DNA from: an uncultured Planctomycetales bacterium
GTDB taxonomy: Bacteria; Omnitrophota; Gorgyraeia; Zapsychrales; JANLHA01
Assembly: GCA_964595465.1 (NCBI GenBank)
Contig: CAZQQI010000011.1
Coordinates: 8,301 to 72,300, forward strand
Length of the DNA: 64,000 bases
Direction of reading: 5' to 3'
Shown here: piece after piece, positions 3,356 through 55,164 of the stretch
Numbering within the stretch: position 1 is the stretch's first letter
How the letters are laid out: each line of letters starts with the position of its first letter
The notes under the pieces: model-generated
The model's input: only the letters and a program-made list of their open reading frames with translations
Databases searched by the model: none
Told to the model about the DNA's origin: nothing
Program-made: the position numbers and the translations under genes

Positions 3356-3975
3356 GATCGTTTCTCCAGACAGCCGTCAAGAGCGCGGCGGACGTCCGCA
3401 AAGATCTCCCCGCGGGAACGGTCCGCTGAAATGACCCGGATACGTTCCGGCTCCTGTCGGGACAATTCCAAATATCCTTCTCTGACCTTCTGGTGATAAT
3501 CAAGAGAACGCTGTTCAATACGGTCCTTGTTGTCTCCAGCCCGCCGCAGACCTTCTGCGGCATCAATATCAAAGACCAGCGTGATATCCGGCCGGATTGA
3601 ACGGGTCGCGAAACGACCGATGTCGCGGATCGCCGAAAGCGCGACCCCGATCCCGTACCCCTGATAAACCAGAGTCGAATCCAGAAAGCGGTCGCATAAA
3701 ACCAGCCGTCCCTGTTCCAGCGCCGGGACCAGAACTTCAGCGACCAGCTGGGCGCGGGCCGCCATGTACAAAAGCACCTCGCATTCCCGGCACATTTCAG
3801 TATTGTCGACATCCAGCAAAAGGTCACGCACCCTCTCGCTGATCTTGACCCCGCCGGGTTCACGCAAAAGCAGGACATCATGGCCCTGCTGCTTCAGGTA
3901 TTCTTGGGCGAAAGCGATCTGTGTGCTTTTGCCCGATCCTTCCGCCCCTTCAAATGTGATAAAACGTCCGCTCAT
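3352..3975 (-). CDS. tmk: thymidylate kinase
   Basis: N-terminus FITFEGAEGSGKSTQ... then LLLREPGG; 207 aa; start overlaps the cysS stop. Confidence 0.9.
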   Translation of the reverse strand: MSGRFITFEGAEGSGKSTQIAFAQEYLKQQGHDVLLLREPGGVKISERVRDLLLDVDNTEMCRECEVLLYMAARAQLVAEVLVPALEQGRLVLCDRFLDSTLVYQGYGIGVALSAIRDIGRFATRSIRPDITLVFDIDAAEGLRRAGDNKDRIEQRSLDYHQKVREGYLELSRQEPERIRVISADRSRGEIFADVRRALDGCLEKRS

Positions 3976-5384
3976 GCCGGCTCCAATTCCTGCCCTTGCG
4001 GGGTGTCTTTGACCTTGATCCCTTTTTCGGCAAGATGGTCGCGGATCTCGTCCGACCGCTGATAATTCTTCTCGGCGCGGGCCGCCTGCCTTTCCCGGAT
4101 CAACTCCGACACAGCAGGATCTTTAACCGCCTCCTGAAATTCTTCGTCCAGATCAGAAAAATCCGCGGACAGTCCAAAGACACGCTCAAGCAGGTCTCCC
4201 GCCGCTGCCGCGCCCTGAGTGATCAGGACCTCCCCGCCCTTGCGCCCTTGCGCCTTATTGACATCATTCAGCAGTTCAAAGAACACGGCCCAGGCCCGCG
4301 GGGTATTAAAATCATCGTCCATGGCGGCTGTAAACGCATTACGGAACGCCGTAACACGTTGCTCTTCCGGAGCATCAGGATCCGCGGAGAGCTTTTCCGC
4401 CAAAACACTCAGCCGCCAGATCTTCTTGCGGGCCTGACGGACCTCGGCCATCCTGTCGTCGGAAAAATCCAGTGTACTGCGGTAATGCGTCATTAAAAAA
4501 AGCATTTTGATATCGTCAACGGAATATTTGCGGACAGCATCCTCGATCGTAATAAAATTCCCCAGCGACTTGGACATCTTCTGTTTATTGATCGTCAGCA
4601 GACCATGATGGATCCAGTATTTGGCGAACGGCTTTCCGGTCAGGGCCTCGGCCTGAGCGATCTCGTTCTCGTGATGCGGAAACTGCAGGTCTAATCCGCC
4701 GCCGTGAATATCCAGGGTATCGCATCCCAGATGCTTCAGGCTCATGCAGGAACATTCAATATGCCACCCCGGACGTCCCGCGCCCCAGGGACTGTCCCAG
4801 GCGGGCTCTCCCTCTTTCGAGGCCTTCCAGAGAGCAAAATCCAGGGGGTCACGCTTTTTTGCGCCCTTTTCAATCCGCACGCTGTCCAGCATATGCTCAA
4901 TACTCTGTCCGGAAAGCCTGCCGTAGCCGTCAAACCGGCGGACCGCAAAATAGACATCGCCATCGACGGCATAAGCGGCGTCTTTCTCGATCAGTCCCTC
5001 GATCACCCGGATCATTTCAGCAATATTTTCCGTGGCGCGCGGCTCATAATCCGGCTCCCCGATACCCAAAGACTGCAGGTCCTGCCGGTAGTCGGCAATA
5101 TTATCCGCCACGATCTTTTGCCAATCCACGCCCTGCTCAAGGGCCCGGTTGATGATCTTGTCATCCACGTCGGTGATATTCCTGGCAAAAGTCACCCGGT
5201 AGCCGCGGTACTCCAGATACCGCCGGATTACATCAAAGACATACAGACTGCGCGCGTGGCCGATATGACATTTATCGTAAACCGTAACACCGCAGGTATA
5301 CATGTTGATATTCTTCCCGCCGGGGTCGATCGGCGCGAAGGGCTCTTTTTGACCGCTGAGTGTATTGTAAAGCTGTATCCCCAC
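3972..5384 (-). CDS. cysS: cysteinyl-tRNA synthetase
   Basis: MYTCGVTVYDKCHIGHARS (HIGH) and KMSKSLGN motifs; 470 aa. Confidence 0.95.
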   Translation of the reverse strand: MGIQLYNTLSGQKEPFAPIDPGGKNINMYTCGVTVYDKCHIGHARSLYVFDVIRRYLEYRGYRVTFARNITDVDDKIINRALEQGVDWQKIVADNIADYRQDLQSLGIGEPDYEPRATENIAEMIRVIEGLIEKDAAYAVDGDVYFAVRRFDGYGRLSGQSIEHMLDSVRIEKGAKKRDPLDFALWKASKEGEPAWDSPWGAGRPGWHIECSCMSLKHLGCDTLDIHGGGLDLQFPHHENEIAQAEALTGKPFAKYWIHHGLLTINKQKMSKSLGNFITIEDAVRKYSVDDIKMLFLMTHYRSTLDFSDDRMAEVRQARKKIWRLSVLAEKLSADPDAPEEQRVTAFRNAFTAAMDDDFNTPRAWAVFFELLNDVNKAQGRKGGEVLITQGAAAAGDLLERVFGLSADFSDLDEEFQEAVKDPAVSELIRERQAARAEKNYQRSDEIRDHLAEKGIKVKDTPQGQELEPA

Positions 5385-6097
5385 TATTCCTCCTCGTTAC
5401 CCATATCATCCCGGGCGACATCGCATCCGGCCCGGCGTTCCAGTTCCACCACCCTGCGGTGCAGGGCGCGCAGGTTGGCAGAGACCGGATCCAGGACATG
5501 CCCGTGGTCCATCAGGATATCGATCTTCTGCCCCTCCTGCCGGGTCACCCGTCCAGGCACCCCGACCACTGTCGTGTTGGATGGAACATCCTTGATCACC
5601 ACCGCGTTGGCTCCGATATAAGAATTGGAACCGATCACAATATTGCCCAGCACCTTGGCTCCGGCTCCGACCACAATATTATCTTTTAAGGTGGGATGCC
5701 GTTTGCCGGTTTCTTTTCCGGTCCCGCCCAGGGTGACCCCCTGAAACAGGGCGACATTCTCTCCGATGACCGCTGTCTCTCCGATCACTACCCCCATGCC
5801 GTGATCGATGAACAGCCGCCGTCCGATCTGCGCTCCGGGATGGATCTCGACCCCTGTGCAGAAACGGGCCAGCTGAGAGATCAGCCTGGGAAAAAACGGG
5901 ATCTGCCGTTTAAACAAAAAATGCGCGACCCGGTACCAGATCAGAGCGTGCAGTCCCGGATAGAGCAGAAGAATTTCTAACGTGCTCTGCGCGGCCGGAT
6001 CACGGTCCTTGGTCGCCTGGATCTCTTCAGCAAAGATCAGCCGCACATAAAGAAAAACCGCGGCGACAATACCCAGTAATATAAAAAATATCATCAT
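5384..6097 (-). CDS. cysE: serine O-acetyltransferase (the N-terminal 25 hydrophobic residues may reflect an over-extended start)
   Basis: Left-handed beta-helix hexapeptide repeats [38 protein letters not shown]; cysE-cysS adjacency as in Bacillus. Confidence 0.8.
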
Positions 6098-6113: not shown

Positions 6114-6614
6114 TCATGTCATCTGCTGCAGGGTCACTGTGGCGTAACAGGCGATCCCTTCCCCCCGGCCGATATGCCCCATACCTTCATTGGTCTTCGC
6201 TTTAATATTGACAAAGCACGGCTCCACCCTCAGGATCCCGGCAATGCGTTCAGCCATCCGTGTTTTAAAGACCTTGATCTTGGGCTCCTGCAGGATGACC
6301 ACCGCGTCCACGTTCCCGACACGGTATCCGTCTCCCGCAGCCAATTCATAAACCTGCTTCAATAAGACCGAGCTATCAGCATCCTGGTAACGCGGATCCG
6401 TATCCGGAAAGTGCTCGCCGATATCTCCCTTGCCCAGCGCGCCCAGCATAGCGTCGGAGATCGCGTGCAGAACCGCATCAGCGTCGGAATGTCCGTCCAG
6501 GCCGAATTCATGCGGAACTTCGATGCCCCCCAGCACCAGACGGCGGCCTTTCACAAAGCGATGAGAATCATAGCCGATCCCGACGCGTAGATCAGACATA
6601 GCCGTCCTCCTCAC
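6114..6614 (-). CDS. ispF: 2-C-methyl-D-erythritol 2,4-cyclodiphosphate synthase
   Basis: GIGYDSHRF...GHSDADAVLHAISDAMLGA...GDIGEHFPDTDPRY signature. Confidence 0.9.
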   Translation of the reverse strand: MRRTAMSDLRVGIGYDSHRFVKGRRLVLGGIEVPHEFGLDGHSDADAVLHAISDAMLGALGKGDIGEHFPDTDPRYQDADSSVLLKQVYELAAGDGYRVGNVDAVVILQEPKIKVFKTRMAERIAGILRVEPCFVNIKAKTNEGMGHIGRGEGIACYATVTLQQMT

Positions 6615-7293
6615 GTAAAAATAATTCCGCCAGACTCAGATCTTCCGGCGTCGTGATCTTAATATTGCGGTACGAGCCCGGTACAATGGTCACCGGCACA
6701 CCGGTATCTTCGACCAGTTTGGCATCATCACTTGCTGAACCTTCTGCCCCGGCATAGGCCTTCAGCAGAATATCCCGCCGAAAGATCTGCGGGGTCTGCG
6801 CCTCCCAAAGAACATCCCGCGGAAGGGTCTCATGGACAGTCAGACCATTCTTCCCGACGCGCTTGATCGTGGGTTTAAGCGGAACACCGGGTATCGCGGC
6901 CCCGCTCTTCCGGGCTTCAGCAAACACCCGTCGAAAATCGTCAGCAGACAAAAAAGGACGCGCCGCGTCATGAACCGCGATCCATCCTGCATCTTCATCA
7001 ACAGCCTGCAGGCCCCGGCGGACAGAATCTGTCCGTTCGGCGCCGCCTTCGACCAAACGGATTTCCGGACCCTCTTGAAACACAGACAATATCTGTTCGG
7101 CCTGATCCCGGTCACCCGGCGGAATAAGCACCACCAAAACACTGATCTCACCAAGACCCGCCAGCATCTTCACGGTCCGCAAGATCATAGGCTCTCCGGC
7201 AACAGGCAAAAAGGCCTTGGGCGCTTTCATCCCCATACGCTCACCCCGTCCCGCGGCGGGCACGATCACCTGAAGCTTTGAAGATGGGTTCAT
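6592..7293 (-). CDS. ispD: 2-C-methyl-D-erythritol 4-phosphate cytidylyltransferase
   Basis: VIVPAAGRGERMG...KAFLPVAG nucleotidyltransferase motif; ispD-ispF pair. Confidence 0.9.
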   Translation of the reverse strand: MNPSSKLQVIVPAAGRGERMGMKAPKAFLPVAGEPMILRTVKMLAGLGEISVLVVLIPPGDRDQAEQILSVFQEGPEIRLVEGGAERTDSVRRGLQAVDEDAGWIAVHDAARPFLSADDFRRVFAEARKSGAAIPGVPLKPTIKRVGKNGLTVHETLPRDVLWEAQTPQIFRRDILLKAYAGAEGSASDDAKLVEDTGVPVTIVPGSYRNIKITTPEDLSLAELFLREEDGYV

Positions 7294-10707: not shown

Positions 10708-13128
10708 TTATTTGAACGTCAAGCCGTCACCTGAACGCACAACTTCGATCTTCGAACCCGGAGGATGTTTTCCGGCGATGATCTCCTCGGCCAGAAGATC
10801 CTCGACGTGGCGCTGAATGGTCCTCTTCAGAGGACGCGCCCCGTAAACCGGATCAAACCCTTTATCGATCAGAAAATCCAGAGCCTCGGACGTCAGCTCG
10901 ACATCGATCTCTTTTTCCTTGAGCCGTTTGATCACACCGCGCACCTCGATCTTAACGATCTTTTCCAGGTCTTCCCGGGTCAATGACTTAAACACAATAA
11001 TGTCATCAATACGGTTCAGGAATTCCGGTTTGAAAACCTTTTTCACCTCTTCCAGCAAACGTCCGCGCATATCGGCGTAAGACGTGTCCTCAGTCTGGGC
11101 CGCGAATCCCAGCGAACCCCGTTTACGCAGCATTTCCGCGCCCACATTCGACGTCATCAAAATGATGGTATTGCGGAAATCGACCTTGCGCCCCAGGCTG
11201 TCGGTCATGCGCCCGTCCTCCAGGGCCTGCAGAAGGATATTAAAGACATCCGGATGCGCTTTCTCGATCTCGTCGAGCAGGACCACGGAATACGGCTTAC
11301 GGCGCACCTTCTCGGTCAGCTGCCCGCCTTCTTCATACCCCACATATCCAGGCGGGGCACCGATCAGACGCGAGACATTATATTTATCCATATATTCCGA
11401 CATGTCGATCTGGATCAAGGCGTCTTCATCGCCGAACATGAATTCTGCCAGAACACGCGCCAGCAGGGTTTTCCCCACACCGGTCGGTCCCAGAAAAATA
11501 AAAGAACCGATCGGCCGGCGCGGATCTTTGATCCCCGCGCGGGACCGGCGGACCGCCCGGGCGATAGCGCTGATCGGCTCTTCCTGTCCGATCACCACCT
11601 CTTTCATCTTTTCTTCCATAGCAAGCAGACGTTCACTTTCTTTCTGCTCCAGACGGACCAGAGGAATCTTCGTCCATTGTGATACCACCTTGGCAATATC
11701 TTCTTCCCCGATGGTCACAGAAACTTCATCACGTTCCTTGGTCCAGGCGTCACGGACTTTATCCAATTCCTCGCGGGTTTCACGCTCCTCATCCCGCATC
11801 TTGGCCGCAGCCTCAAAATCCTGGCTTTTGATATGGGCTTCCTTTTCCTGCTTGAGAACTTCGATACGGTCCTCGAGGTCCTTGATTTCCGGCGGGATAC
11901 GCATCACGTTGATCCTTGCCCGGGACCCGGCCTCATCCAGAATATCAACAGCCTTATCCGGCAGGGCCCTCCCGGAAATATAACGCTCCGAAAGGCGGAC
12001 CGCTGCGCGGATCGCTTCGTCGGAAAATTTGACCCGATGGTGGGCCTCATATTTATCACGCAGCCCTTCCAGGATCTGCACGGCTTCCTCTTCCGACGGA
12101 GGCTCGACCATAATGGTCTGAAAGCGCCGTTCCAGTGCTGCGTCTTTTTCGATATTCTTGCGGTATTCGTCAAGCGTGGTGGCGCCGACACATTGAATCT
12201 CTCCCCGGGCTAACGCCGGTTTAAGAATATTAGCGGCGTCGATGGCTCCTTCCGCGGCCCCGGCACCGACCAGGGTATGGATCTCATCCACGAAGAGGAT
12301 GAGGTTGCCTGATCGTTTGATCTCCTCCATGATGGCCTTGATCCGTTCTTCGAACTGACCGCGGTATTTTGTCCCGGCGATCATCAGCGCCAGGTCCAGG
12401 ACCACAATATTTTTGTCCCGCAGAATTTCCGGGACATCACCATGGATGATCTGCTGAGCGAGACCTTCAACAATAGCCGTTTTTCCGACACCGGCCTCCC
12501 CGAGAAGAACAGGATTGTTCTTGGTGCGGCGGCTGAGGATCTGCACAATACGTTCGATCTCTTCTTCGCGGCCGATCACCGGGTCCAGTTTGTTCTCTTT
12601 CGCTAATTTGTTGAGGTTACGCCCGTAGGCGTCGATCGCCGGGGTCTTCCCGCTGCTTTTTTCCTGCTCCTGCATATTAAAACCGGCCACACCGGATCCC
12701 AAAATCTCCATGATCTCCATGCGCAGACGGTCCAGATCCACTCCCAGGTTCAGCAGGACCCGGTAGGCCATGCCTTCGCCCTCGCGGACCAGGCCGAGCA
12801 AAAGATGTTCTGTGCCGATATAATTATGTCCGAGAGCGCGGGCCTCCTCGGCAGATAATTCCAGCGCCTTCTTTGAGCGCGGAGTAAACGGGATATCTCC
12901 CAGGACCTGGGTCTGCGGACCCGGCTGGACCAATTTTTCGATCTCGATACGGATCGTTTCCAGATCAACACCCATTTTCTGTAAAACCGCGGCGGCGACC
13001 CCTTCTCCCTCTTTCACCAGTCCCAAAAGAAGGTGTTCCGTCCCGATATAATCATGATTGAAGTGCTTAGCCTCTTCTTTGGCCAGCACGATCACCTTGC
13101 GTGCACGTTCCGTGAATCTATTAAACAT
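10708..13128 (-). CDS. clpC: ATP-dependent Clp protease ATP-binding subunit ClpC
   Basis: Duplicated Clp-N repeats ([18 protein letters not shown] / [18 protein letters not shown]), two AAA+ modules ([16 protein letters not shown]), and a UVR motif in the linker. Confidence 0.95.
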
Positions 13129-14182
13129 TATTTTTCCCTCCTAATTTTAAGCGGATAAGATTAGCACGTTTAATATCGCGGGCGGACGCCGAAAGACGTC
13201 CTCCGGCGATCTTCTGCAGATGCGCCGGCTGAATTGCGATAAAAAGCTCATTTAAAACCTTCTGACCAACATTCTTCACGATACCCAGGTCCACACCCAG
13301 ACGGACCATGGACAGCAATTCCAGTGTCTCCTGACTGGATATGATCCGGGCATTGTGCAATACCCCCAGAGAACGGAAGATCTTATCCTCCAGCATGGGT
13401 TTATTCTGAACGACCAGGGCCTGACGGGCCTGCTCCTCTTGTTCAATGACCTGTATGATCAGACCATTGATATTCTGTAAAATATCATCCTCGCTATGTC
13501 CCATGGAAACCTGATTCGAGATCTGGTAAAAATTCCCGAAGGCATCGGTGCCTTCCCCGTAAAATCCCCGGGCAGCAAAATTCAGTTTCGCAATCGCATT
13601 CAGGACCTTATTGATCTGCTTGGTCATGGCCAGCGCCGGCAGGTGCAGCATAACCGATCCCCGCATGGCTGTTCCGGTATTGGTCGGACAGGCTGTCAGA
13701 TATCCCCAGCGGGGAGAAAAGGCAAAAGCCAGTTTCTCCGCCAGACGGTCATCAATCGCATTAATAACGCCCCAGGCCTCAAAGAGGTTCAGGCCTGAAT
13801 TGAGAACCTGCACCCGCAAATGATCTTCTTCATTGATCATAACCGAGAGGATCTCTTCCTGCGACACGATCAAAGATTTAGATTCCCCCTCGGCCGCGTG
13901 TTCATGGCTCATGAGATGACGCTCGACCAAAAATTCTTTATCCACATTATCCATTTCGGTCATAGGGAATACCGTGGCATTCTTAAAGTAATCGACCTCT
14001 TTAACGGCCTCTTCAACAGACACCATGACCGCCTGCAGCTGCTTTTTGGTCGCCCGGTTGGTAAACGGCATTTTGGCCAGATTACGGGCCAGGCGGACAC
14101 GCGTCGAAAGCACAATATCGGAATGCGGGCCCGACCCCTTCAGCCATTCCCCGCTCTGAGTGATCAGATCGTCAAGATTCAT
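13121..14182 (-). CDS. mcsB: protein-arginine kinase McsB
   Basis: ATP:guanido phosphotransferase catalytic domain. I take the start at MNLDDLITQ..., which is preceded by GGGAGA. The track's longer ORF to 14251 would overlap mcsA by 80 nt. Confidence 0.85.
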
Positions 14183-14690
14183 GATTTTTCTCCCGCTGTT
14201 CCAGGTCTTTGAGCTTGTCCCGCAGGATTGCCGCCTGCTCATAATCTTCACGGACCACCGCCTGTTTCAGCTGTTTGCGCAGGTCTTTCAGATCATCGCC
14301 ATTCTGCTTGACGGACTGCACGTAGCGGCGGGGCCGCTTACCGGCATGACGGTTAGATCCGTGGATCTTTTTCAGCAAAGTGGTCAGCTGATCCCGAAAC
14401 GACTCATAGCATTCACTGCAACCCAGACGCCCGTATTTGCGGAAATCTTCATAGGACATCGAACAATGTTCACAGGCGGCCGTTTTTTGAGGCTCCTCTT
14501 TTTCTTTCGCCGGAGACTGATTGAAATCCGACAGCCCGGCGAGAAGATCGGCCAGACCGAACTGCTGTTCCATCTGCAGACTTTTCTCCTTAGCACACCC
14601 CTCACAAATATGCAGTTCGGTCACCTTCCCATCGATCAATTCTGTCAGATGGACCGTTGCTTTTTTCTGCTTACACACTTCGCATTTCAT
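14172..14690 (-). CDS. mcsA: McsA (zinc-finger/UVR activator of McsB)
   Basis: Paired CxxC zinc-finger motifs (CEVCKQKKA...CEGC; CEHC...CSEC) and a UVR-like segment (EQAAILRDKLKDLEQ). The order mcsA-mcsB-clpC matches Bacillus. Confidence 0.85.
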   Translation of the reverse strand: MKCEVCKQKKATVHLTELIDGKVTELHICEGCAKEKSLQMEQQFGLADLLAGLSDFNQSPAKEKEEPQKTAACEHCSMSYEDFRKYGRLGCSECYESFRDQLTTLLKKIHGSNRHAGKRPRRYVQSVKQNGDDLKDLRKQLKQAVVREDYEQAAILRDKLKDLEQREKNHES

Positions 14691-14708
14691 ATCTTTCTCC
14701 CCAAGTTG

Positions 14709-14795
14709 AAGTCACAAGGTCACACGTCGCCAGTCACAAGAAAAACGTAAAACGGGAAAAGTGAAACGTAAAACCCAACAAACTCTCAACCCAAC
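14709..14795 (+). repeat. family-2 intergenic repeat, copy 1 (GTCACA direct repeats, AAACG heptads, CAACAAACCC module)
   Basis: The stretch gtcacaag..aaaacgtaaaacgggaaaagtgaaacgtaaaacccaacaaactctcaacccaa is near-identical to the reverse complement of 46061..46170. It is related to the expanded array at 36036..36312. Confidence 0.8.
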
Positions 14796-14836
14796 ACACT
14801 CATATCCGCTCCACGTCTCCCGTTCACCGTTGAACG

Positions 14837-23273: not shown

Positions 23274-23545
23274 ACTGCAAATCCAATCATATCAAAGGGT
23301 TCGGACTCTCCCGCACCCGTAAGCTCTTAAGTGATACTTTATCATAACAAAGAATATATCAATTTTAAAATATTTTTCATGTTTTTTCTATTTGCATATT
23401 TATTGCATTCCTCGTCGAGAAATATGTTTCTATACACATCCAGTCATGGAAAATTTGTTTTGGGGAAAGAATAAAAGGCTCTATGAACGTTTGCGCGGGT
23501 AAAACACAGAATAATGTGATGTTTCGTATTTAAATAATTTCTGCT

Positions 23546-23672
23546 CGAATGGCGATAAAAAAGATCGGGAGGGACACGCAGAGCGAGTTCCGAACCGAAC
23601 GGTTCATTATAAAAACGTTCGGGAGGTTGTTTGAGCGAACGCGTCCCTCCCGATCTTCCTGAGCCATTCAGC
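23546..23672 (+). repeat. family-1 structured intergenic element, copy B
   Basis: cgaatggcgataaaaaagatcgggagggacacg + conserved core gcagagcgagttccgaaccgaacggttcattataaaaacgttcgggaggttgtttgagcgaacg + cgtccctcccgatcttcctgagccattc. A 14-bp inner stem and a 6-bp outer stem. Confidence 0.8.
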
Positions 23673-23783
23673 TGCAAAATTGTACACGAAAGCATTACCG
23701 TATCCGCCATACCCATTTATTTTTTAAAGAAGCAATAAAAAGAAAACGCGCTTTTATAAAAAGCACGCCGTCTGAAAAACACC

Positions 23784-23820
23784 GTAAAAAAAGCCGGCAG
23801 GGATCGCTCCCTGCCGGCGT
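23784..23820 (-). terminator. intrinsic terminator of the porin gene
   Basis: The minus strand reads GCCGGCAGGGAGCGATCCCTGCCGGC followed by TTTTTTTAC, 15 nt after the stop at 23836. Confidence 0.8.
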
Positions 23821-23835
23821 ATTCATCAAGCGGTC

Positions 23836-34607: not shown

Positions 34608-35182
34608 CGGCCCGCCCTCCTCTTCCCAACGGCCGTGCGGGGAGAAAAAGAAATGAACCATTCATACTCATTCTTCCCAGAATGTGCCTTCCTCGACATG
34701 AAAAACACATCGTATTCTGGATGCCCTCCCCTTACACCTCTCAGGTCCAAAGGATAAAAAGTATACGCCAAACTTCGCTGTATATACATGCCCGGATCAC
34801 GGGATAAGTCCAGATCCGTGACCAGTTGCGCCGCAGCCCGCGGCCAGCCGATAACCTTGCGGACATACGTGCTGTATTGATCAATGGCATAAACATTGGG
34901 ATCCAGATATTTGATATAATCCGCTTCGCCGGCATGCGAAATCCGAAACCATAATTGTTCGGCCATTGGTCCCAATTGTAAAACAGAAAAAAGAACAACG
35001 CTGAATCCTGCAAAATAAGCCAGAGAAACGCGAATGGACCTATCCGGGCCGATCCATCGAATTAGAAGAATAATACCAGCCGCAATAATTATGCAGAATA
35101 ACCTCATCATTCCAAAAGAAAGAATCCATGCTTTGGGAGAAGATAAGTGGCTGTGGAAGGAGCTGTTTAAAAACCCATTCAT
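34604..35182 (-). CDS. hypothetical membrane-anchored protein
   Basis: 192 aa with one TM near the N-terminus. Its ATG overlaps the panB stop (ATGA) and its stop overlaps the downstream GTG start, so it is translationally coupled in the panB operon. Confidence 0.45.
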   Translation of the reverse strand: MNGFLNSSFHSHLSSPKAWILSFGMMRLFCIIIAAGIILLIRWIGPDRSIRVSLAYFAGFSVVLFSVLQLGPMAEQLWFRISHAGEADYIKYLDPNVYAIDQYSTYVRKVIGWPRAAAQLVTDLDLSRDPGMYIQRSLAYTFYPLDLRGVRGGHPEYDVFFMSRKAHSGKNEYEWFISFSPRTAVGKRRAGR

Positions 35183-36030
35183 CCTGAACGCTTTTCTTTG
35201 GCTTTATATGCTGAGCGAATCTCGTGAGCAACCGCATCCGGTATATGATAACTGTGGACATCAGTAGGGAAAGATCCGCTGGAAACCTCTTCATGAAATT
35301 CCTTGACGGCCAAGCGGACCAGATCAGCGCCGTCCAAATAAGCCTTAACGAATTTGGGCCGACGACCCTGCGACAAGCCCAGCACATCGTGCAGGACCAG
35401 GACCTGCCCGTCGCATTGCGCGCCGGCGCCGATACCGATGGTCGCGACGGTCAACCGTTCGGTGATCATAGCGGCTACACGGTCCGGCACACATTCCAGA
35501 ACCACGGCACAGCATCCGGCCTGCTCTAAAGCTTCCGCCTGCTGTATGATCGCGCAGGCGGTTTCTGTCTCCCGTCCCTGAACACGAAATTCGGTCGCGG
35601 TCTGCGGGGTCAGCCCCACATGCCCTATGACCGCGATCCCGGCCGCGGTCAGTTGTTCCACAACGGCAAGGCAGCCGTCAAACCATTCCACTTTTACTCC
35701 CTGAGCTCCGGATTTGATCAGCCCCCGGGCATCTTTCACCGGACGGCTGTCCGTCTGCTGATAAGAAGAAAAGGGCATGTCCGCAATAACCGGAGTATTT
35801 TTCGCCCCGCGGCATACCGCGGCCGTATGATAGACCATTTCCCGGATCATGACATCCCGGGTACTCTCCAGGCCCAGAACCACATTCGCCAATGAATCGC
35901 CGACCAGAATAATATCCACACCAGCCTCGTCTGCCAGACGGGCAAAAGGATAATCATAGGCCGTGATCATACTGATCTTGGGCGGAGCCGGCCGCTTGGT
36001 AAGAATATCTTTAAGAAGCTTTTCGTTCAT
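35179..36030 (-). CDS. panB: 3-methyl-2-oxobutanoate hydroxymethyltransferase (ketopantoate hydroxymethyltransferase)
   Basis: MNEKLLKDILTKRPAPPKISMITAYDYPFARLADEAGVDIILVGDSL aligns with the PanB N-terminus (ITAYDY about 21 aa from the start). The track ORF extends in frame upstream to 36216 through the repeat array. Confidence 0.9.
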   Translation of the reverse strand: MNEKLLKDILTKRPAPPKISMITAYDYPFARLADEAGVDIILVGDSLANVVLGLESTRDVMIREMVYHTAAVCRGAKNTPVIADMPFSSYQQTDSRPVKDARGLIKSGAQGVKVEWFDGCLAVVEQLTAAGIAVIGHVGLTPQTATEFRVQGRETETACAIIQQAEALEQAGCCAVVLECVPDRVAAMITERLTVATIGIGAGAQCDGQVLVLHDVLGLSQGRRPKFVKAYLDGADLVRLAVKEFHEEVSSGSFPTDVHSYHIPDAVAHEIRSAYKAKEKRSG

Positions 36031-36035
36031 GGCAG

Positions 36036-36312
36036 TGTTATTGGGTTTGTTGGGTTTGTTGGGTTTGTTGGGTTTGTTGGGTTTGTTGGGTTTATTGGGT
36101 TGTGAGTTGTGAGTTTTGGGTTTTGGGTTTTGGGTTTTGGGTTGTGGGTTTTGGGTTTTGAGTTTTGGGTTTTGGGTTTTGGGTTTTGAGTTTTGGGTTT
36201 TGGGTTTGCGTTTCACGTTTCCCGTTTCACGTTTCCCGTTTTACGTTTTACGTTTCCCGTTTCCCGTTTCCCGTTTCACGTTTCCCGTTTCCCGTTTCCC
36301 GTTTTACGTTCA
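36036..36312 (-). repeat. family-2 repeat, expanded copy 3: compound minisatellite
   Basis: On the plus strand: roughly 6 x GGGTTTGTTG (36043..36100), roughly 13 x GGGTTTT/GAGTTTT heptads (36118..36207), roughly 15 x CGTTTNN heptads (36208..36312), then gtgacc. Same module order as copies 1 and 2. Confidence 0.85.
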
Positions 36313-36340
36313 CCGCCACCATGTGACCGGCGGCCTTCTT

Positions 36341-37732
36341 TCATCCTTCACGGCCTTTAGGAAGGCCGCTGGTATCAGTGCCGGCGAGAAACGCCATAAT
36401 GCGTTCCGCCGCCCATTTTCCGCAGACCATGGCATCCAGAACATGCTGCTGGGGATCGGCACAATCCCCTGCGGCGAAAACCCGCGGCACCGAAGTCTGA
36501 CCGGTGTCTTCATCCAGCCGGATCGTGCCGTCTTCGTTCATCTTAAGCCCCTGCACGGCGCGCTGGATGGTTTTCGACACCTCATGCCCCTTGGCCACAA
36601 TAACTGTATCCGCCTCCAGCACTGTCTCGGAATCCGGCGCCGGAACCAGGACCCATTGGCCGTTGGCCTCGGGATCCGCATAATCCATACGGATAACCCG
36701 CACACCAGATACTTCTCCGGAAGAAGAAACACAGATCTCTTTCGCCCTGGACAACGTTTCAAAAAGAACCCCTTCCTGCCGGGCATACTCAATATCATTG
36801 CGATGGGCATCCAGAGAATCCTCAGCGCCTTCACATACCAGACGGACATCTTTACCCAGCCGGCGGCAGATCCGGGCGCAATCCAGAGCCAGAGCTTGAT
36901 CTCCTAAAACAGAGATCTTCTCCCCCAGGCGGCGGGCAAATGAATGATGAAAATTCTGTTCTTCACAGTTCAGGTTCATCAAAAGTTCGTTGGCGTAGAT
37001 CACACCGCGCGCATCAGAGCCCGGGATAGACTGCAGTGACGGGCGGGAACGGCCGACAGCCAATAAAAGTGCGGCATACCCTTCTTCAAAAATATCATCC
37101 GGCGTAATGGTCCGGCCAAAATGACAATCTGTTTGCAGATCCACACCAAGGTCCCGGATCTGCGAAATCTCTGCATCCAAAGCCGGCCGTGATATGCGGA
37201 ACTCCGGCAGGCCGTAACGCAGGACACCGCCGGGCTGAGGCAGCGATTCAAAGATCGTGACACAGTAATGCTGTTTGGCAAGCAGGGCCGCCGCGCTTAA
37301 TCCCGCCGGTCCGGAACCGATAACCGCGATCCTTTCCCGGGAGCAGGTCAAATTATCACGGCCGAAAAATTTCGGACGGCCGTTATCCGCCACAAAACGT
37401 TCCAGCGCGCGGACATCGAGCGGAACCTTTTTTCCTCCGATAACGAAATCTGCTTCACACGGGGCCCGACACACACGTCCGCAGATGCCGGGCAGATCGC
37501 TGGCTTCGCGGATCTTCTTGTAGGCTTCAGGGATATCTCCTTCACGCAGAAGACGCACAAATTCCAGGATATTGATCCCCAAAGGACATTTAGGCTGAAA
37601 GGTGGGCACATGGCTCTGCGGAAACTTGCGAGCTTCGTCCACAGCAGTGCGTTTAGAAAAACCCAATTCCACTTCTTGAAAATTCCGCAGGCGTTTTGCC
37701 GGAGATTGTGCGGGAACCGGTGTCGGCTTCAT
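36341..37732 (-). CDS. nfnB: NADH-dependent reduced ferredoxin:NADP+ oxidoreductase large subunit (GltD-like)
   Basis: 463 aa. N-terminal 4Fe-4S cysteine cluster region, FAD/NAD(P) Rossmann motifs (VIGSGPAGLSAAALLA, VLGDQALALDCA...), and a C-terminal GltD-like domain. Paired with a PyrK-like subunit. Confidence 0.8.
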   Translation of the reverse strand: MKPTPVPAQSPAKRLRNFQEVELGFSKRTAVDEARKFPQSHVPTFQPKCPLGINILEFVRLLREGDIPEAYKKIREASDLPGICGRVCRAPCEADFVIGGKKVPLDVRALERFVADNGRPKFFGRDNLTCSRERIAVIGSGPAGLSAAALLAKQHYCVTIFESLPQPGGVLRYGLPEFRISRPALDAEISQIRDLGVDLQTDCHFGRTITPDDIFEEGYAALLLAVGRSRPSLQSIPGSDARGVIYANELLMNLNCEEQNFHHSFARRLGEKISVLGDQALALDCARICRRLGKDVRLVCEGAEDSLDAHRNDIEYARQEGVLFETLSRAKEICVSSSGEVSGVRVIRMDYADPEANGQWVLVPAPDSETVLEADTVIVAKGHEVSKTIQRAVQGLKMNEDGTIRLDEDTGQTSVPRVFAAGDCADPQQHVLDAMVCGKWAAERIMAFLAGTDTSGLPKGREG

Positions 37733-37736
37733 GATG

Positions 37737-38588
37737 TCATCCCTTAATCATTTTCTGCCAGATATGCTTAAGGCCGCCGGAGGCCTCCTGATGTTCATCC
37801 CTGGAACATACGGCCTGCATACGGTGATTCAGTTCAGAAAAATCCACTTGATGGGCGTCAAATTCCGGACCGTCTTCACAGGCCAAAACCAATTGCTTGG
37901 CGACCTTCATACGGCAGGAACCGCAAATCCCCCTTCCGCAGGACATCAGGGTATGAACCTGCAGAAGATTACGGATCTTTTTCTGCCGGGTCATTTCAGC
38001 GATCTCACGCAGCATTTCCGTCTGACCGCAGGTATACACCAACTGGACATTGTCTTGGCCGCAAAGTTCTTTAACAGCGTCGGTCACCGTTCCCCGCCGG
38101 TGAGCCGAGCCGTCTTCAGTCGTCAAAACAACCTTATGACAGGCAATGCGCATCTGGGGATCCAGGATCAATTCATTTTTCGTGCGGGCGCCCAGCACGC
38201 CGATCACTTTATTGCCGGCACGGCTATATGCCCGGCACATCGGCAGGATCTGTGCTGCAGAAATATCCGTCGCCGCGCAGACCACGACGCCGACCTGCCG
38301 GGGTTCTTCCACTGTCCCGAAAGGACCGCTCACAGAAAAGACCTCATCCCTAATCGGCAGGCTTCCTAAACAGCTTGTCGCCGCACCGGTTTCCTTGATG
38401 ATCACCGAAATCAAACCCCGGCGCGTATCCGCCTCCATAACAGACAGCGGGATCCACTTTTTCCCTTCCTCCGGCGCGATCATAACAAACTGACCCGGCC
38501 TGACCATGTCGGCGATCACTTCAGCTCGGATCTCCAGCCGCTTGATCCCTTCCCCTAAAATTTGTTTATTGACGATCGTATATGGCAT
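37737..38588 (-). CDS. nfnA: NfnA / PyrK-like FAD- and 2Fe-2S-containing electron-transfer subunit
   Basis: 283 aa; ferredoxin-NADP-reductase-like barrel plus a C-terminal CGRGICGSC [2Fe-2S] motif. 4-nt gap to nfnB. Confidence 0.8.
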   Translation of the reverse strand: MPYTIVNKQILGEGIKRLEIRAEVIADMVRPGQFVMIAPEEGKKWIPLSVMEADTRRGLISVIIKETGAATSCLGSLPIRDEVFSVSGPFGTVEEPRQVGVVVCAATDISAAQILPMCRAYSRAGNKVIGVLGARTKNELILDPQMRIACHKVVLTTEDGSAHRRGTVTDAVKELCGQDNVQLVYTCGQTEMLREIAEMTRQKKIRNLLQVHTLMSCGRGICGSCRMKVAKQLVLACEDGPEFDAHQVDFSELNHRMQAVCSRDEHQEASGGLKHIWQKMIKG

Positions 38589-43649: not shown

Positions 43650-43833
43650 AAACCGCTCCTTTTTCCTATTAATAAGTCTATTGATTATATAGAGCACCCG
43701 CTCTCAGGTCAACAGGACAGGTGAAGATATCGTGACGTGTAGAAAAATAAGACATATTGCTATTTCTGAACTTGGCAAAGCACAAGTGAGCAGTCCTGTT
43801 CTCCTCTTTACGTTTTATGTTATAATCCCTCCC

Positions 43834-46056
43834 ATGTTATTATCCGATGTCCTCAAAACCTATTCTTTTCCGAAGGCGATCAGGGACGCAGTTTTAAAAA
43901 GCGGGATACGGGATCTCTTCCCTCCGCAGGCCGAAGCTGTCCGGCGGGGCGTGCTGGACCGCAAAAACATGCTGATCTCTGTCCCGACGGCGTCCGGAAA
44001 AACCCTGATCGCTGAACTCTGCTTTTTATCCTCACTTCAACGAACCAATAAACAATGCCTCTACCTGGTTCCGTTAAAGGCGCTGGCGGCGGAAAAAGAC
44101 CAGGATTTCCGCACGAAATACGGACCGCACGGAGTCCGCGTCTCACGGATCACCGGCGATGAATCCCGCCCGCGTCATCCTCTCAACTCCACCGATATCC
44201 TCATCTCTACAGCTGAAAAGATCGATGCACTGCTGCGTTCCGGCTCCCATTGGTCCGCCGGCCGTCTGGATCTGCTGATCGTTGACGAGATCCATTTCCT
44301 TAATGACGGCAGCCGCGGTCCGACCCTGGAGGTGCTCATCGCCCGTCTGAGAGCCCTCAATCCGGACATGCAGGTGGTGGCCCTGAGCGCCACGGTCCAT
44401 AACGCCGCTGAAATGGCTCAGTGGCTTGACGCAGAACTGCTGGCCAGTACCTGGCGGCCGATCCCGCTGAAGGAGGGCGTCTCCTGGCAGGACCAGATCC
44501 GTTTCGCGGGTCACGGCACACGCGTGATCACCGAAACAGCGTCAGAGGACCTCAACCGCCTGGTCCTGGACACCCTGCGCGGCAAAGGACAGGTCCTCAC
44601 CTTTGTCAATTCCCGGCGCTCCACACAGGCGGCAGCCAGGAAGATGGTCCGGGACGTTGCTGACGTTTTGACCTTTGCAGAACGCGAAACTCTCAGAACA
44701 CTGGCGCAGAAAGCCCATGGACCGGAATCATCGGCAACCCGGATCTGCCGGGCACTCAGTGATTGTCTGCGGGCAGGCGTCGCGTTCCACCATGCCGGCC
44801 TAAAGCCGGTTCAGCGCGACCTGATTGAAGACGCGTTTAAAAAAAACCTGATCAAAGTGATCTGCGCGACCCCCACGCTGGCCGCCGGAGTCAACCTCCC
44901 GGCCCGCCGTGTGATCATGCGTGACATCAAACGATTCGAATCCGGGCTGGGATCCGCCTACATCCCGGTTTCAGAATATAAACAATGCGCCGGACGTGCC
45001 GGACGCCCGCAATATGACACCTACGGAGAAGCCCTGATCCTGGCTAAATCTTCCGCGGACCGTAACCGCTTATTCCGACGCTACATTGAAGGGGATCCCG
45101 AACCGATCATCTCCAAACTCGGCACAGAATCGGCCCTGCGCATCCACCTTCTGGCAGCGCTTTCGTCCGGATTTATCCATGATGTCGACTCAGCGATCCA
45201 TTTTCTGCGAGGAACCTTCTTTGCTTTTCAAAACCCTCAGCTCAATATTTTAGAGCTGATCAGCGGCATATTTGACTTTCTGCGCGCGGAAGGATTTGTA
45301 GAGAAATCCGGATTCAGGTTCGAGGCAACGCACTTCGGACAGCTCACCAGCCGGCTTTATCTGGATCCGCTTTCGGCCATGATCCTGCGCGACGGACTGA
45401 ATGAAACCCGAAAAAAAAGGAAACAGTCTGCCGCCGGCATCTTTCAGCTGATTTGCTGTTGCCCGGACAGCGTGCGGCTGCATTCTTCCCAAAAACAGAT
45501 CGAACGCATTGATGATTACGCCGCCCGCCACGCTGACGATTTCTTTCTGGATCAAAATGAACATCCCATTCTACAGGATTATTTTGCCTATTTAAGCATT
45601 ATGAAAACCGTTCTGGTCCTGAACAGCTGGGCTGAGGAACAGCGTGAAGAATCCATCTGCGACCGTTTCGGCATCGGACCGGGTGATATTTACCGGGTCA
45701 CGGACACGGCCCGCTGGCTGCTGCACGCGGCCATTGTCTTCGCCGATCTTTTTAATTGGAAAGACCTTACCCTGCCCCTGGCCCACCTGCAGTCACGGGT
45801 CCATTACGGGATCCGGGCCGAACTTATTTCCCTTGCTCAACTCAAGCATGTCGGACGGGTCCGCGCCCGGGCCTTATTCGACGCGGGATATTCTTCCCCA
45901 TCCTCTCTGAAAGACCTTTCCGTGGAAACCCTTGCCGACCTGCCCGGTTTCGGCAAGAACATTGCCGCTGCCATCCTCAAAGAGATCAGCAAACCTGCCG
46001 CGGACCTGGACGCGGTCAAACGCCTGAGAGACCAGTGGGATAAGAAAAAAAGATGA
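43834..46056 (+). CDS. Hel308/Ski2-like superfamily-2 DNA helicase
   Basis: Q motif FPPQAEAV; motif I TASGKT; DEIH box; HHAGL and QCAGRAGR motifs; winged-helix/ratchet region; C-terminal HhH (LADLPGFGKNIAAAILKEI). I start it at ATG 43834 (MLLSDVLK...), which is 7 nt after a TATAAT, so the mRNA is possibly leaderless. The alternative is GTG 43732. Confidence 0.8.
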   Translation: MLLSDVLKTYSFPKAIRDAVLKSGIRDLFPPQAEAVRRGVLDRKNMLISVPTASGKTLIAELCFLSSLQRTNKQCLYLVPLKALAAEKDQDFRTKYGPHGVRVSRITGDESRPRHPLNSTDILISTAEKIDALLRSGSHWSAGRLDLLIVDEIHFLNDGSRGPTLEVLIARLRALNPDMQVVALSATVHNAAEMAQWLDAELLASTWRPIPLKEGVSWQDQIRFAGHGTRVITETASEDLNRLVLDTLRGKGQVLTFVNSRRSTQAAARKMVRDVADVLTFAERETLRTLAQKAHGPESSATRICRALSDCLRAGVAFHHAGLKPVQRDLIEDAFKKNLIKVICATPTLAAGVNLPARRVIMRDIKRFESGLGSAYIPVSEYKQCAGRAGRPQYDTYGEALILAKSSADRNRLFRRYIEGDPEPIISKLGTESALRIHLLAALSSGFIHDVDSAIHFLRGTFFAFQNPQLNILELISGIFDFLRAEGFVEKSGFRFEATHFGQLTSRLYLDPLSAMILRDGLNETRKKRKQSAAGIFQLICCCPDSVRLHSSQKQIERIDDYAARHADDFFLDQNEHPILQDYFAYLSIMKTVLVLNSWAEEQREESICDRFGIGPGDIYRVTDTARWLLHAAIVFADLFNWKDLTLPLAHLQSRVHYGIRAELISLAQLKHVGRVRARALFDAGYSSPSSLKDLSVETLADLPGFGKNIAAAILKEISKPAADLDAVKRLRDQWDKKKR

Positions 46057-46060
46057 TACA

Positions 46061-46170
46061 GGTTTGTTGGGTTTATTGGGTTGAGAGTTTGTTGGGTTTT
46101 ACATTTCACTTTTCCCGTTTTACGTTTTCCTTGTGACAGGTGACTTTGTGACGTGTAACCTGGTGACCTT
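46061..46170 (-). repeat. family-2 intergenic repeat, copy 2
   Basis: Reverse-complement match to 14709..14795 with extra GGGTTTGTTG/GGGTTTATTG units and four or five TGTGAC/GGTGAC repeats. It lies between the convergent helicase and recO. Confidence 0.8.
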
Positions 46171-46175
46171 GTCTC

Positions 46176-50044: not shown

Positions 50045-50064
50045 GTCGAACCTTTCCGCAACGG

Positions 50065-50658
50065 TTATTTATATACCGGGATCTTGATGGTCATGCCGGG
50101 GCTGATCCGGTCGGGGTTAGGCAGAACATCTTTGTTCTCCTCATAGATCATGATCCACTTCTGATAAGTGTCATAATACTTCTTGGAGATCTTCTGCAGG
50201 GTGTCGCCCTCCTGCACGGTATATTCTTCATAGGTCAATTCTTTATCCATGTCCGGCAGCGGCTCTTCGACCTTAACCGGTTCAGTCCATTTGGGCTTTG
50301 GTTCCGGCTTGGATTTGGGCGGCACACGGACCGGCTCAACATCCGGAATAGGCTGGAGTTGAAGGTCTTCCACCTCTTCAGGACGGTCGACATTTTTGGT
50401 CACTTCCACCACATAGATCTTCCGGGTCTTTTTGATATCACTGCGGTCCGGCGCCTGGGGCTGACCGGAAATATACCCGAAATTTCCCTTTTCCATAGAC
50501 TGGTCAAGACGGGGCTTTTCCTCGGCATACATCTGGACCTCCAGGCCGCCTTTTTTGACGCCCGCCTGCGGGGTCTGCTGCTGACGAGTTGCTGAACAGC
50601 CGGTCATCATCCCGGTCGATAGAAAAACTGTGATCATCATAAAAATAGTTTTACGCAT
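50065..50658 (-). CDS. LysM-domain lipoprotein
   Basis: Start at MRKTIFMMITVFLSTGMMTGCSA (lipobox). C-terminal LysM YTVQEGDTLQKISKKYY...ISPGMTIKIP. Confidence 0.6.
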   Translation of the reverse strand: MRKTIFMMITVFLSTGMMTGCSATRQQQTPQAGVKKGGLEVQMYAEEKPRLDQSMEKGNFGYISGQPQAPDRSDIKKTRKIYVVEVTKNVDRPEEVEDLQLQPIPDVEPVRVPPKSKPEPKPKWTEPVKVEEPLPDMDKELTYEEYTVQEGDTLQKISKKYYDTYQKWIMIYEENKDVLPNPDRISPGMTIKIPVYK

Positions 50659-54163: not shown

Positions 54164-54285
54164 GATTACCTCCTGAAATTGAGATCCCGGGACTAACGGG
54201 AAAAAAAATATGACAGACATACAAGCACACAAATTATGTCACTCTTGATCCTATACAATATGTTCTTCGATCCAACAGCCCTCAC

Positions 54286-54418
54286 ACGAATGGCGCTAAA
54301 AAAGATTGGGATGTGTTCGCAGAGCGAGTTGCGAACCGAACGATTAACGATTCACTATAAAAACGTTCGGGAGGCTGTTTGAGCGAACGAGCACATCCTA
54401 ATCTTCATGAGCCATTCG
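54286..54418 (+). repeat. family-1 structured intergenic element, copy D
   Basis: acgaatggcgctaaaaaagattgggatgtgttcg + core + agcacatcctaatcttcatgagccattcgg. The inner stem pairs gatTggg with cctAatc, where copies B and C pair gatCggg with cccGatc. Confidence 0.8.
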
Positions 54419-54623
54419 GCGGGGGAACTCGCTCGAAAACACATGACACAGTCTCCTTTTAATGACATAATTCCTGAGCATTAACCCCAGCCAACTTTTG
54501 TGAAGAAAAAAGGATGATGACTATTTAATTAATTGTAAACTTTTGATAATAAACAATTTATGAGATACGACACCATTTTTTTTCTTAACACCAGGCCCAT
54601 CTGCGGGACCGGGGACTGTTGTA

Positions 54624-54794
54624 TCATTGCTGCATCTGTTCGACTTCACGCTCAACATCCTGCGCGGCATCCCGCGTTCCTTCCGATACGGTCTCCCCGG
54701 CCTGTTCCATATCATTCTGCGCTTCTTCACAGCCGGTCAAAACGATCCCTGCAAATAAAATCATTATCATAATAATTCCTTTACGGTAAGACAT
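54624..54794 (-). CDS. small lipoprotein (56 aa)
   Basis: MSYRKGIIMIMILFAGIVLTGC lipobox signal, preceded by AAGAGGAGG. Acidic mature part. Confidence 0.5.
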   Translation of the reverse strand: MSYRKGIIMIMILFAGIVLTGCEEAQNDMEQAGETVSEGTRDAAQDVEREVEQMQQ

Positions 54795-54826
54795 ATTCCC
54801 TCCTCTTTTCATTGTTTATCAGACAT

Positions 54827-54988
54827 TCAAACTCTTTTCTTTCCAGAAATAAGAGCTACGACAAATAAAATCAAAAAGATAACAAATAAAACCTTGGCAA
54901 TCGACGCTGCCGTTCCGGCGACCCCGCCAAATCCAAAAACAGCAGCGATAATCGCGATCACCAAAAATGTTATGGCCCAAGATAACAT
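54827..54988 (-). CDS. UPF0391/DUF1328 small membrane protein (53 aa; missed by the ORF track)
   Basis: My own reverse translation gives [53 protein letters not shown]. It is preceded by GGGAGCGG. This is the typical YtjA-like family sequence. Confidence 0.7.
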
Positions 54989-55164
54989 AGCCGCTCCCTT
55001 CTTTTACGTTGAATGATCTATAAAATCGTCCTTCCCGAAGAGGACGCTACTCTTAAACACATGATAGCGGGAACGGATAAAGCCGCATAGACAGGGAATC
55101 CCCTTTTAATGGAGCGGATTCTACTATCCCCTGTTTAAGAAATAAAAAAACAAAAAGGCAGGAT

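Follow-up and report, generated by a model that had tools for sequence, protein, structure and literature searches.

We examined a tandem-repeat array at positions 36036-36312 of a 64,000-nt stretch of contig CAZQQI010000011.1, which belongs to a metagenome-assembled genome (MAG) of Candidatus Omnitrophota. This stretch is referred to below as the window, and positions given for it count from its first nucleotide. The array lies between an NfnB-like gene and panB, and the following features were observed at the locus.

36031-36340, no strand assigned: the whole nfnB-panB spacer, 310 nt, derived; in the closest syntenic relative the two genes overlap by 4 nt
36043-36096, plus strand: module M1a, six nonamers (5 x GGGTTTGTT, 1 x GGGTTTATT), which holds the canonical G-quadruplex (G4) motif 36043-36099
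36097-36208, plus strand: module M1b, 16 GGGTTTT-type heptads, which holds the G4 motif 36118-36155
36209-36313, plus strand: module M2, 15 heptads (CGTTTCC, CGTTTCA, CGTTTTA or CGTTCAC) with block-wise duplications, e.g. the CCC-A / CCC-TA 28-nt blocks
35179-36030, minus strand: panB, 283 aa, with the canonical ATG (MNEKLL); Pfam Pantoate_transf, E 1.9e-95
36341-37732, minus strand: NfnB/GltD-like oxidoreductase; Pfam Fer4_20 and Pyr_redox_2
37737-38588: NfnA-like gene, preceding the NfnB-like gene

The array was found to be genuine and compound. Tandem Repeats Finder (TRF), applied to the 64-kb window, reported a repeat of period 9 with 6.8 copies at 36041-36101 (score 115), one of period 7 with 16.1 copies at 36095-36207 (score 177) and another of period 7 with 13.7 copies at 36209-36304 (score 143), and all remaining repeats in the window scored 64 or less. 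Counts of two motifs were also far above those in shuffled sequence (12 observed and 0.35 expected; 8 observed and 0.25 expected). When the array was parsed unit by unit, the six nonamers were followed by the 16 GGGTTTT-type heptads (nine GGGTTTT, three GAGTTTT, two GGGTTGT, one GAGTTGT and one GGGTTTG) and by the 15 CGTTTYM heptads (eight CGTTTCC, three CGTTTCA, three CGTTTTA and one CGTTCAC). A preliminary description of this DNA, made from the sequence, had reported a compound tandem array before panB, and both the array and the unit counts given there held up. Its heptads with a 21-nt period were likewise recovered; its decamer with a 30-nt period was not, the first unit being the 9-mer GGGTTTGTT, with one NKP encoded by each.

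The GGGTTTT unit had also been described as identical to the ciliate telomeric repeat, which it is not. Ciliate telomeres are built from T2G4 in Tetrahymena, T4G4 in Oxytricha and Euplotes, and T2G3(G/T) in Paramecium, and G3T4 is not among these units. The array resembles eukaryotic telomeric repeats in its short G/T-rich tandem unit with G3 tracts on one strand, but it is internal to a 72.5-kb bacterial contig, lies between two genes (nfnB and panB) and adjoins two repeat modules that are not telomeric. Assignment to telomeric repeats of the ciliate type was rejected.

The preliminary description had missed two things: a composite element is present in three dispersed copies, of which the array is one, and the spacer as a whole is a derived insertion. 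The same three modules, in the same order and unexpanded, were found at two weak TRF arrays (46061-46128 and 14742-14774). We call these copies B and C, the array before panB being copy A.

46057-46175, plus strand: copy B, unexpanded composite element, filling the gap between a convergent Hel308-like helicase gene and recO
14691-14836, minus strand: copy C, unexpanded composite element, filling the gap from the stop of a class IV aminotransferase gene (ilvE-like) to the start of an mcsA-like gene

Both copies run from a GGGTT-rich module through four CGTTTYM heptads to four or five GTGAC-type 7-8-mers. They are 89% identical over 85 nt, non-repetitive junctions included, and share a 61-nt core that spans such junctions with two differences only. 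Pattern searches together with blastn located exactly three sites in the window. After each unit type in copy A had been reduced to its first occurrence, the collapsed sequence was colinear with copies B and C and shared with them GGTTTGTTGGGTTTATTGGGTTG.GAGTT, then TTTCAC.TTTCCCGTTTTACGTT, then a degenerate GTGAC-type tail. Because of this colinearity, copy A is homologous to B and C; it has undergone in-place expansion of three different units, which now number 6 (nonamer), 16 (GGGTTTT heptad) and 15 (CGTTTYM heptad). The three sites probably represent a lineage-specific composite intergenic element of about 100-120 bp, made of three degenerate tandem-repeat modules in fixed order, with the array as its copy A. 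The modules are M1 (GGGTTT(G/A)TT / GGGTTTT), M2 (CGTTTYM heptads) and M3 (GTGAC-type 7-8-mers), and what sets the element apart as unusual is that modules of three different repeats have been dispersed jointly, as one unit.

All three copies are intergenic, and they occupy three different gene contexts and orientations. Copy A stands between the co-directional nfnB and panB with its G-rich strand antisense to both, copy B stands between the convergent stops of the Hel308-like helicase gene and recO, and copy C stands between the class IV aminotransferase gene and the mcsA-like gene with its G-rich strand in sense. Only copy A abuts a start codon. The GTGAC/GGTCACA heptads of copy C (14700-14740) are directly upstream of a string of mcsA-like, mcsB (ATP:guanido phosphotransferase) and clpC-like genes (10708-14690), and they are loosely similar to the CtsR box. 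We did not accept this module as a CtsR-like operator: its units are spaced with an 8-nt period rather than in the heptad-N3-heptad arrangement of the CtsR box, ctsR is not adjacent, and the same module is present in copy B between the helicase gene and recO.

The composite was also sought in larger collections. In 185,579 species-representative genomes, a 21-mer from the B/C core matched once, in a Thermoguttaceae MAG (L004) and without the other modules beside it; with about 0.3 chance matches expected, this match is probably due to chance and was treated as uninformative. An 18-mer common to copies A, B and C retrieved 66 loci from the JGI metagenomes, none with GGGTT or GTGAC modules, and scans of viral contigs gave 3 and 8 matches. 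As far as the genome and JGI metagenome collections show, the composite is confined to the host lineage. About half of the 66 metagenome loci were in CGTTTYM arrays, on contigs full of unrelated 7-8-nt arrays, and CGTTTYM arrays were present in many environmental contigs rich in simple sequence repeats (SSRs). Since the 18-mer scan simply picked SSR-rich genomes, we do not claim that the CGTTTYM motif is special.

Dispersed copies of this kind could have been produced by a non-autonomous mobile element, similar to transposable elements of the miniature inverted-repeat type (MITEs) or repetitive extragenic palindromic (REP) sequences, that was spread by transposition or by an enzyme like the REP-associated tyrosine transposases (RAYT), with copy A as a fresh insertion that later expanded. 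The near-identical copies B and C exactly fill their gaps, and copy A occupies a junction that is gap-free in a relative. The element is also short, dispersed and strictly intergenic, with near-identical copies filling gene gaps (89% for B and C), as are REP sequences, bacterial interspersed mosaic elements (BIMEs) and MITEs. However, it is built of direct tandem units where those families have a palindromic unit, terminal inverted repeats or a stable hairpin. A search for terminal inverted repeats, a palindromic core and target-site duplications found none of these, inverted pairs around copy B were at chance level, and copies B and C had no significant secondary structure (fold z +1.12 and -0.05, respectively). 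No transposase gene was noticed in the window, and the conserved cores gave zero copies in the species-representative genomes or the JGI metagenomes. We consider spread as a mobile element improbable.

Evidence that the spacer is new came from relatives. The nearest relative of this PanB is 56% identical, so close strains are lacking in the collections. In the contig that carries this closest relative (L085) the gene order is the same, with Dtd, TatD, DUF3352, a small open reading frame (ORF), NfnA, NfnB and PanB, and later GlyRS and PPDK; nfnB (3853-5004) and panB (5001-5819) overlap there by 4 nt (gcATGAaa). Two more Omnitrophota MAGs (L086 and L087) have panB after mgtE, with gaps of 4 and 22 nt. 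Intergenic gaps in the window have a median of 23 nt, compared with 310 nt for the nfnB-panB spacer. Because the two genes overlap in the syntenic relative and gaps in the window are typically short, the spacer is new sequence, a derived insertion into a junction that was formerly coupled in translation.

The array could alternatively be translated. The preliminary description had raised the possibility that PanB carries a repeat-encoded, low-complexity N-terminal extension, which from GTG 36216 would give a protein of 345 aa. Translation confirmed an unbroken frame from GTG 36216 (MKRKPKTQNS...NKPNKPNNTAMNEKLL) to ATG 36030, in frame with panB, and both the 9-nt period of the nonamer and the 21 nt of three heptads preserve the frame. 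However, the panB-sense strand of the array is 4.7% T, and the stretch of M1, 36036-36207, is open in two of its three frames; the panB frame itself closes at 36243. Because the strand is so poor in T, an open upstream frame is not special here. All 120 PanB homologs listed were 251-291 aa long, and the 11 that were aligned start within a few residues of MNEKLL, with the first invariant column 8 residues past that Met. The NCBI annotation gives PanB 283 aa, and in the syntenic relative panB overlaps nfnB. The motifs GGAG, GAGG and AGGA were absent upstream of ATG 36030, and GTG 36216 was also without a Shine-Dalgarno (SD) sequence. The missing SD sequence before ATG 36030 had been pointed out before and is real, but it is not unusual, as about half of 48 crudely called genes in the window are without one.

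The repeat peptide itself gave no indication of a conserved protein. A search of its 62 residues against 5.8 billion proteins returned only eight hypothetical proteins of 63-93 aa, none of them fused to an enzyme. We read these eight, two of which were looked up, as spurious small ORFs that cover arrays of this kind in bacteria unrelated to the host. The two looked-up ORFs overlie (AAAACCC)n, of 14 units in one case (a Burkholderia genome) and 13 in the other (a metagenomic contig, about 100 nt upstream of rpiB-glyA). In both cases (L088 3040-3220, the metagenomic contig with rpiB-glyA, and L090 3035-3140, Burkholderia sp. Ac-20365) the (AAAACCC)13-14 array is perfect and the annotation is a short hypothetical protein. 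Just upstream of its array, the metagenomic contig has a short stretch of GGGTTTT in inverted orientation. The idea that other copies of the repeat are in frame with downstream genes was not borne out, as copy C is stopped 8 codons before mcsA and copy B is upstream of no gene. Given the homolog lengths, the MNEKLL alignment, the NCBI start, the T-poor strand, the peptide search and the stop in copy C, we abandoned the extension, whose probability we put close to nil. PanB starts at its canonical ATG, and the array is non-coding and part of no conserved protein. The case is also a caution that T-poor repeat strands make long open frames which mimic N-terminal extensions.

We then considered whether the length of the array can be trusted. 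A second, independent short-read assembly (Logan, SRR11308339), the only further one found to hold this organism, contained identical NfnB and downstream genes. On each side its contigs broke off within the array, after 73 nt of spacer on the nfnB side and 37 nt on the panB side. The outer 73 nt and 37 nt, where the two assemblies overlap, match the MAG exactly, and the existence and edges of the array are independently confirmed. The internal unit counts come from the MAG assembly only. An artefact of length, with a real repeat but with copy numbers, 277-bp size and frame made by the assembler, would account for the Logan contigs stopping within the array from either side and for perfect runs longer than typical k-mers (the 5 identical nonamers amount to 45 nt). 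Against this, the outer 73 nt and 37 nt are the same in both assemblies, many variant units give the array an internal order, and arrays of 13-14 identical units have been assembled in other genomes. An assembler-made length is an outside chance in our judgement.

In kind, the array is the same as known bacterial long SSRs, a class that is already described but whose function is unproven. It has tandem units of 5-11 nt beyond chance, it is located in non-coding DNA, and it contains at least four G3 tracts with 1-7-nt loops. Long SSRs (LSSRs) of 5-11 nt, as summarised from Mrazek 2007 in PMC4679880 and PMC4692102, have heptamers as their most abundant type in many bacterial genomes, and Burkholderia is named among the LSSR-richest genera in that summarised work. 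The over-representation of heptameric SSRs has been explained by polymerase slippage (PMC4692102; Mrazek 2007 as summarised). With these LSSRs and the heptanucleotide short tandemly repeated repetitive (STRR) sequences of Cyanobacteria, the array shares long heptamer arrays in the non-coding DNA of free-living bacteria, to which the GGGTTTT arrays of 13-14 units in the Burkholderia genome and the metagenomic contig can be added. It is unlike them in being compound, with three different units side by side, and in being homologous to unexpanded dispersed copies.

The G-rich heptameric SSRs of Xanthomonas and Nostoc (GGGAATC / GGGGA(C/T)T) are intergenic, number 2-26 units, occur mainly beside general-metabolism genes and form G4 in vitro, with their function left open (Rehm et al. 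2015, PMC4692102). Their G-rich strand is reported to lie either 50 bp or less upstream of an ORF, on the strand that does not code, or 50 bp or less downstream of a stop on the coding strand (PMC4692102). All three copies in the window are placed in this way, with A 12 nt from the panB ATG (antisense), B 5 nt past the helicase stop (sense) and C about 35 nt past the ilvE-like stop (sense). As in the published repeats, 7-nt G3 tandem units stand in intergenic DNA near metabolic genes and are, by sequence, capable of forming G4 (and i-motifs). The units here, however, are GGGTTTT and the GGGTTTGTT nonamer, the G-rich array is one module of a recurring three-module composite, three copies occur in 64 kb, and the phylum is Omnitrophota. 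We did not assign the array to the GGGNATC family in the strict sense, since its units are GGGTTTT and GGGTTTGTT. The location before panB had been called unusual for a bacterial housekeeping gene; this does not hold, as the described heptamer SSRs lie mainly beside general-metabolism genes (PMC4692102) and a 13-unit AACCCAA array is found upstream of rpiB-glyA elsewhere.

Another heptamer repeat, TAACTGA, is found in marine Beggiatoaceae, Cyanobacteria and Bacteroidetes, where it ends a few nucleotides before SD-less start codons, including those of essential genes, and where a role in translation has been proposed but not shown (MacGregor 2015, PMC4679880). Those repeats differ from the composite in unit, are mostly present in 2-6 copies and keep one orientation to the gene, whereas the composite varies in orientation; membership of the TAACTGA family in the strict sense was rejected on unit sequence. 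A phase-variable contingency locus was also rejected, as the array is outside any conserved ORF, promoter hexamers were not detected in the spacer, and the neighbour is a pantothenate-biosynthesis gene.

The physical properties of the spacer were then compared with the rest of the window. The plus strand, the template for panB, was observed to contain two canonical G3N1-7 runs (36043-36099 and 36118-36155), and G4Hunter over M1 gave a maximum of 1.48 and a mean of 1.04. The preliminary description was right that the array has G4 potential by sequence criteria, but at these values it cannot be called a strong former, and the predicted G4 potential of the panB template strand is moderate. The G-rich strand folded as single-stranded DNA was unstructured by Watson-Crick pairing (z +2.97). 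Spacer RNA in the panB sense was less structured than shuffles (z +1.26), and the leader was fully unpaired in the minimum free energy (MFE) structure. In this RNA, M1 forms a 175-nt G-free, C-rich run (36034-36208) that is four times as long as the next longest in the window, which is in copy B, and the C-minus-G value of M1 (0.45) is the most extreme in the window, 6.6 standard deviations above the mean. Such a run has the make-up of a Rho utilisation (rut) site, at least 70-80 nt of C-rich, G-poor, unstructured and untranslated RNA, the comparison being one of how it would work only. Neither a sigma70-type promoter nor an intrinsic terminator was found inside the spacer in a scan of 35800-36600, and a search of the whole window against Rfam at gathering thresholds gave one tRNA only and no family in the spacer; ARAGORN called the same tRNA as tRNA-Arg. 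One significant structure was observed at the nfnB end of the spacer.

36300-36394, minus strand: long imperfect RNA hairpin, dG -45.4 kcal/mol, z -3.11, with 1 of 200 shuffles as good

The left arm consists of the final ~35 nt of nfnB's coding sequence and the right arm of the spacer tail (36307-36340); the nfnB stop falls in the loop, and no U-tract comes after the hairpin. The inverted-repeat scan gave 13-nt arms with 92% complementarity. This predicted hairpin could serve as a 3' stabiliser or as an RNase III-type processing site.

In our preferred reading, which we regard as plausible and which fits everything observed, the array belongs to a known class of intergenic heptamer SSRs and has been expanded by slippage; it is non-coding and forms a slippage-prone leader that possibly modulates panB. 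To a largely neutral or selfish expansion of the SSR, whose effects would be incidental, we give a probability of about 0.7. Expansion would have proceeded by replication slippage and by unequal block duplication of units, because runs of identical units and 28-nt blocks such as CCC-A / CCC-TA in M2 are the products of these processes. The insertion would uncouple panB translation from that of nfnB, and the transcript would carry a stable hairpin at the 3' end of nfnB followed by about 270 nt of structure-free, A/C-rich leader. Unstructured and CA-rich leaders can support SD-independent initiation or ribosome standby. The leader here may thus offer ribosomes an SD-independent landing or standby region, the 175-nt G-free, C-rich stretch may be an ideal Rho-loading (rut-like) site, and the G-rich template strand could form G4 and impede RNA polymerase. 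Through such leader, Rho and G4 effects, repeat number could shift panB expression. None of these results shows that the array is kept in order to tune panB.

Several points weigh against the preferred reading. Independent slippage would not be expected to keep three modules in one fixed order in dispersed copies, and this order hints at mobilisation or a function. The significant hairpin that the spacer tail forms with the nfnB end suggests some selection on the spacer. Variation in length by slippage is itself inferred and not observed, and the Logan contigs break at both edges of the array whose internal counts the MAG assembly supplies. The evidence base is three copies in one genome, which bears on the dispersal mechanism and on genome-wide abundance.

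A rival reading is a dedicated cis-regulatory cassette, kept because it tunes panB. Possible routes include a G4 in the template blocking RNA polymerase, Rho loading unless panB is translated, ribosome standby, and binding of a CsrA-like protein to the 14 GGA-containing GGAAACG units. The G4 motifs on the template strand, the most extreme C-over-G and G-free RNA stretch in the window, the fully unpaired leader and the significant hairpin at the nfnB end are all consistent with such a role. M1 also fits the position rule reported for G4-forming heptamer repeats (PMC4692102), Beggiatoaceae heptamer arrays directly precede SD-less starts (PMC4679880), and in two of the environmental contigs (L057 and L068) heptad arrays stand just upstream of near-consensus promoters. 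However, with copy A antisense-G to both neighbours, copy C sense-G and copy B between convergent stops, no single RNA-level mechanism fits, and the relatives do without any spacer. Published work on comparable repeats could not assign a function to them either (PMC4692102). Because the copies show no consistent gene orientation and relatives need no spacer, we rate a dedicated regulatory role as unlikely, though less so than either the mobile element or the assembler-made length.

A more elaborate proposal would make the composite a lineage-specific cassette that is mobilised or recognised by a protein. The panB copy would then be a length-tunable insulator replacing the translational coupling of nfnB and panB, with repeat number setting how much transcription or translation reaches panB (by template G4, Rho loading or standby), and the GTGAC module would be operator-like elsewhere, e.g. 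in copy C at the expected promoter site of mcsA-mcsB-clpC. We hold this to be more doubtful still than each of these three alternatives. Under the preferred reading of a slippage-expanded SSR, the locus is a tidy example and not a discovery: a heptamer/nonamer SSR element that was inserted where two genes of a housekeeping operon once overlapped and that then ballooned there, the host phylum, Omnitrophota, being uncultured. Should it be true that repeat number varies and sets panB output, the locus would provide a rare functional handle on the unexplained, though long familiar, excess of heptamers in bacterial intergenic DNA.

Further arrays were observed in the contigs retrieved with the 18-mer. 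Short CGTTTYM arrays were common between the genes of diverse environmental contigs, where they were often paired with inverted (GGGAAAC)n, which makes long heptad-built hairpins, or ended directly before a start codon; as these contigs were selected by the 18-mer, the motif may not be special. Examples among L008-L073 are L024 3617-3700, L036 2100-2200, L026 219-300 and L065 (5232-5320 and 5782-5862). On the minus strand of L057 (2890-3160), (GCAAGAT)3(GCAGGAT)3 is followed by about 13 CGTTTYM heptads, a near-consensus promoter (TTGACA-N17-TACAAT) and then what reads as alaS. The same contig carries further arrays of (GCTCCTCT)14, (CGATATG)14 and (GGCAAGAA)6. In L017 (8984-9568), a small gene for what appears from its translation to be a four-helix-bundle protein has imperfectly inverted arrays of 8-mers on either side, (GGCAAGTG)10 upstream and (GCACACTT/GCATACTT)11 downstream.

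Among the Omnitrophota relatives, L087 has a 278-nt intergenic region (6560-6840) downstream of the panB neighbourhood, which contains the short degenerate repeats (AGGCTAAGRTCA)2 and (TACGCAN)4.6 followed by a promoter-like TGATAGAAT and is not homologous to the composite element. Within the window itself, unusually large gaps of 560-930 nt were observed between crudely called genes at 54233-55164, 800-1520, 50045-50650 and 23274-23835, with 0 Rfam families at gathering thresholds. This bacterial genome encodes, in the helicase gene next to copy B (43732-46056, plus strand), a Hel308/Ski2-like protein with an 'archaeal helicase domain 4' and an HhH domain at its C terminus. The gene is among the very few plus-strand genes of the window: the minus strand carries 49 of the 54 genes that were crudely called, and the GC skew of the plus strand is negative throughout.

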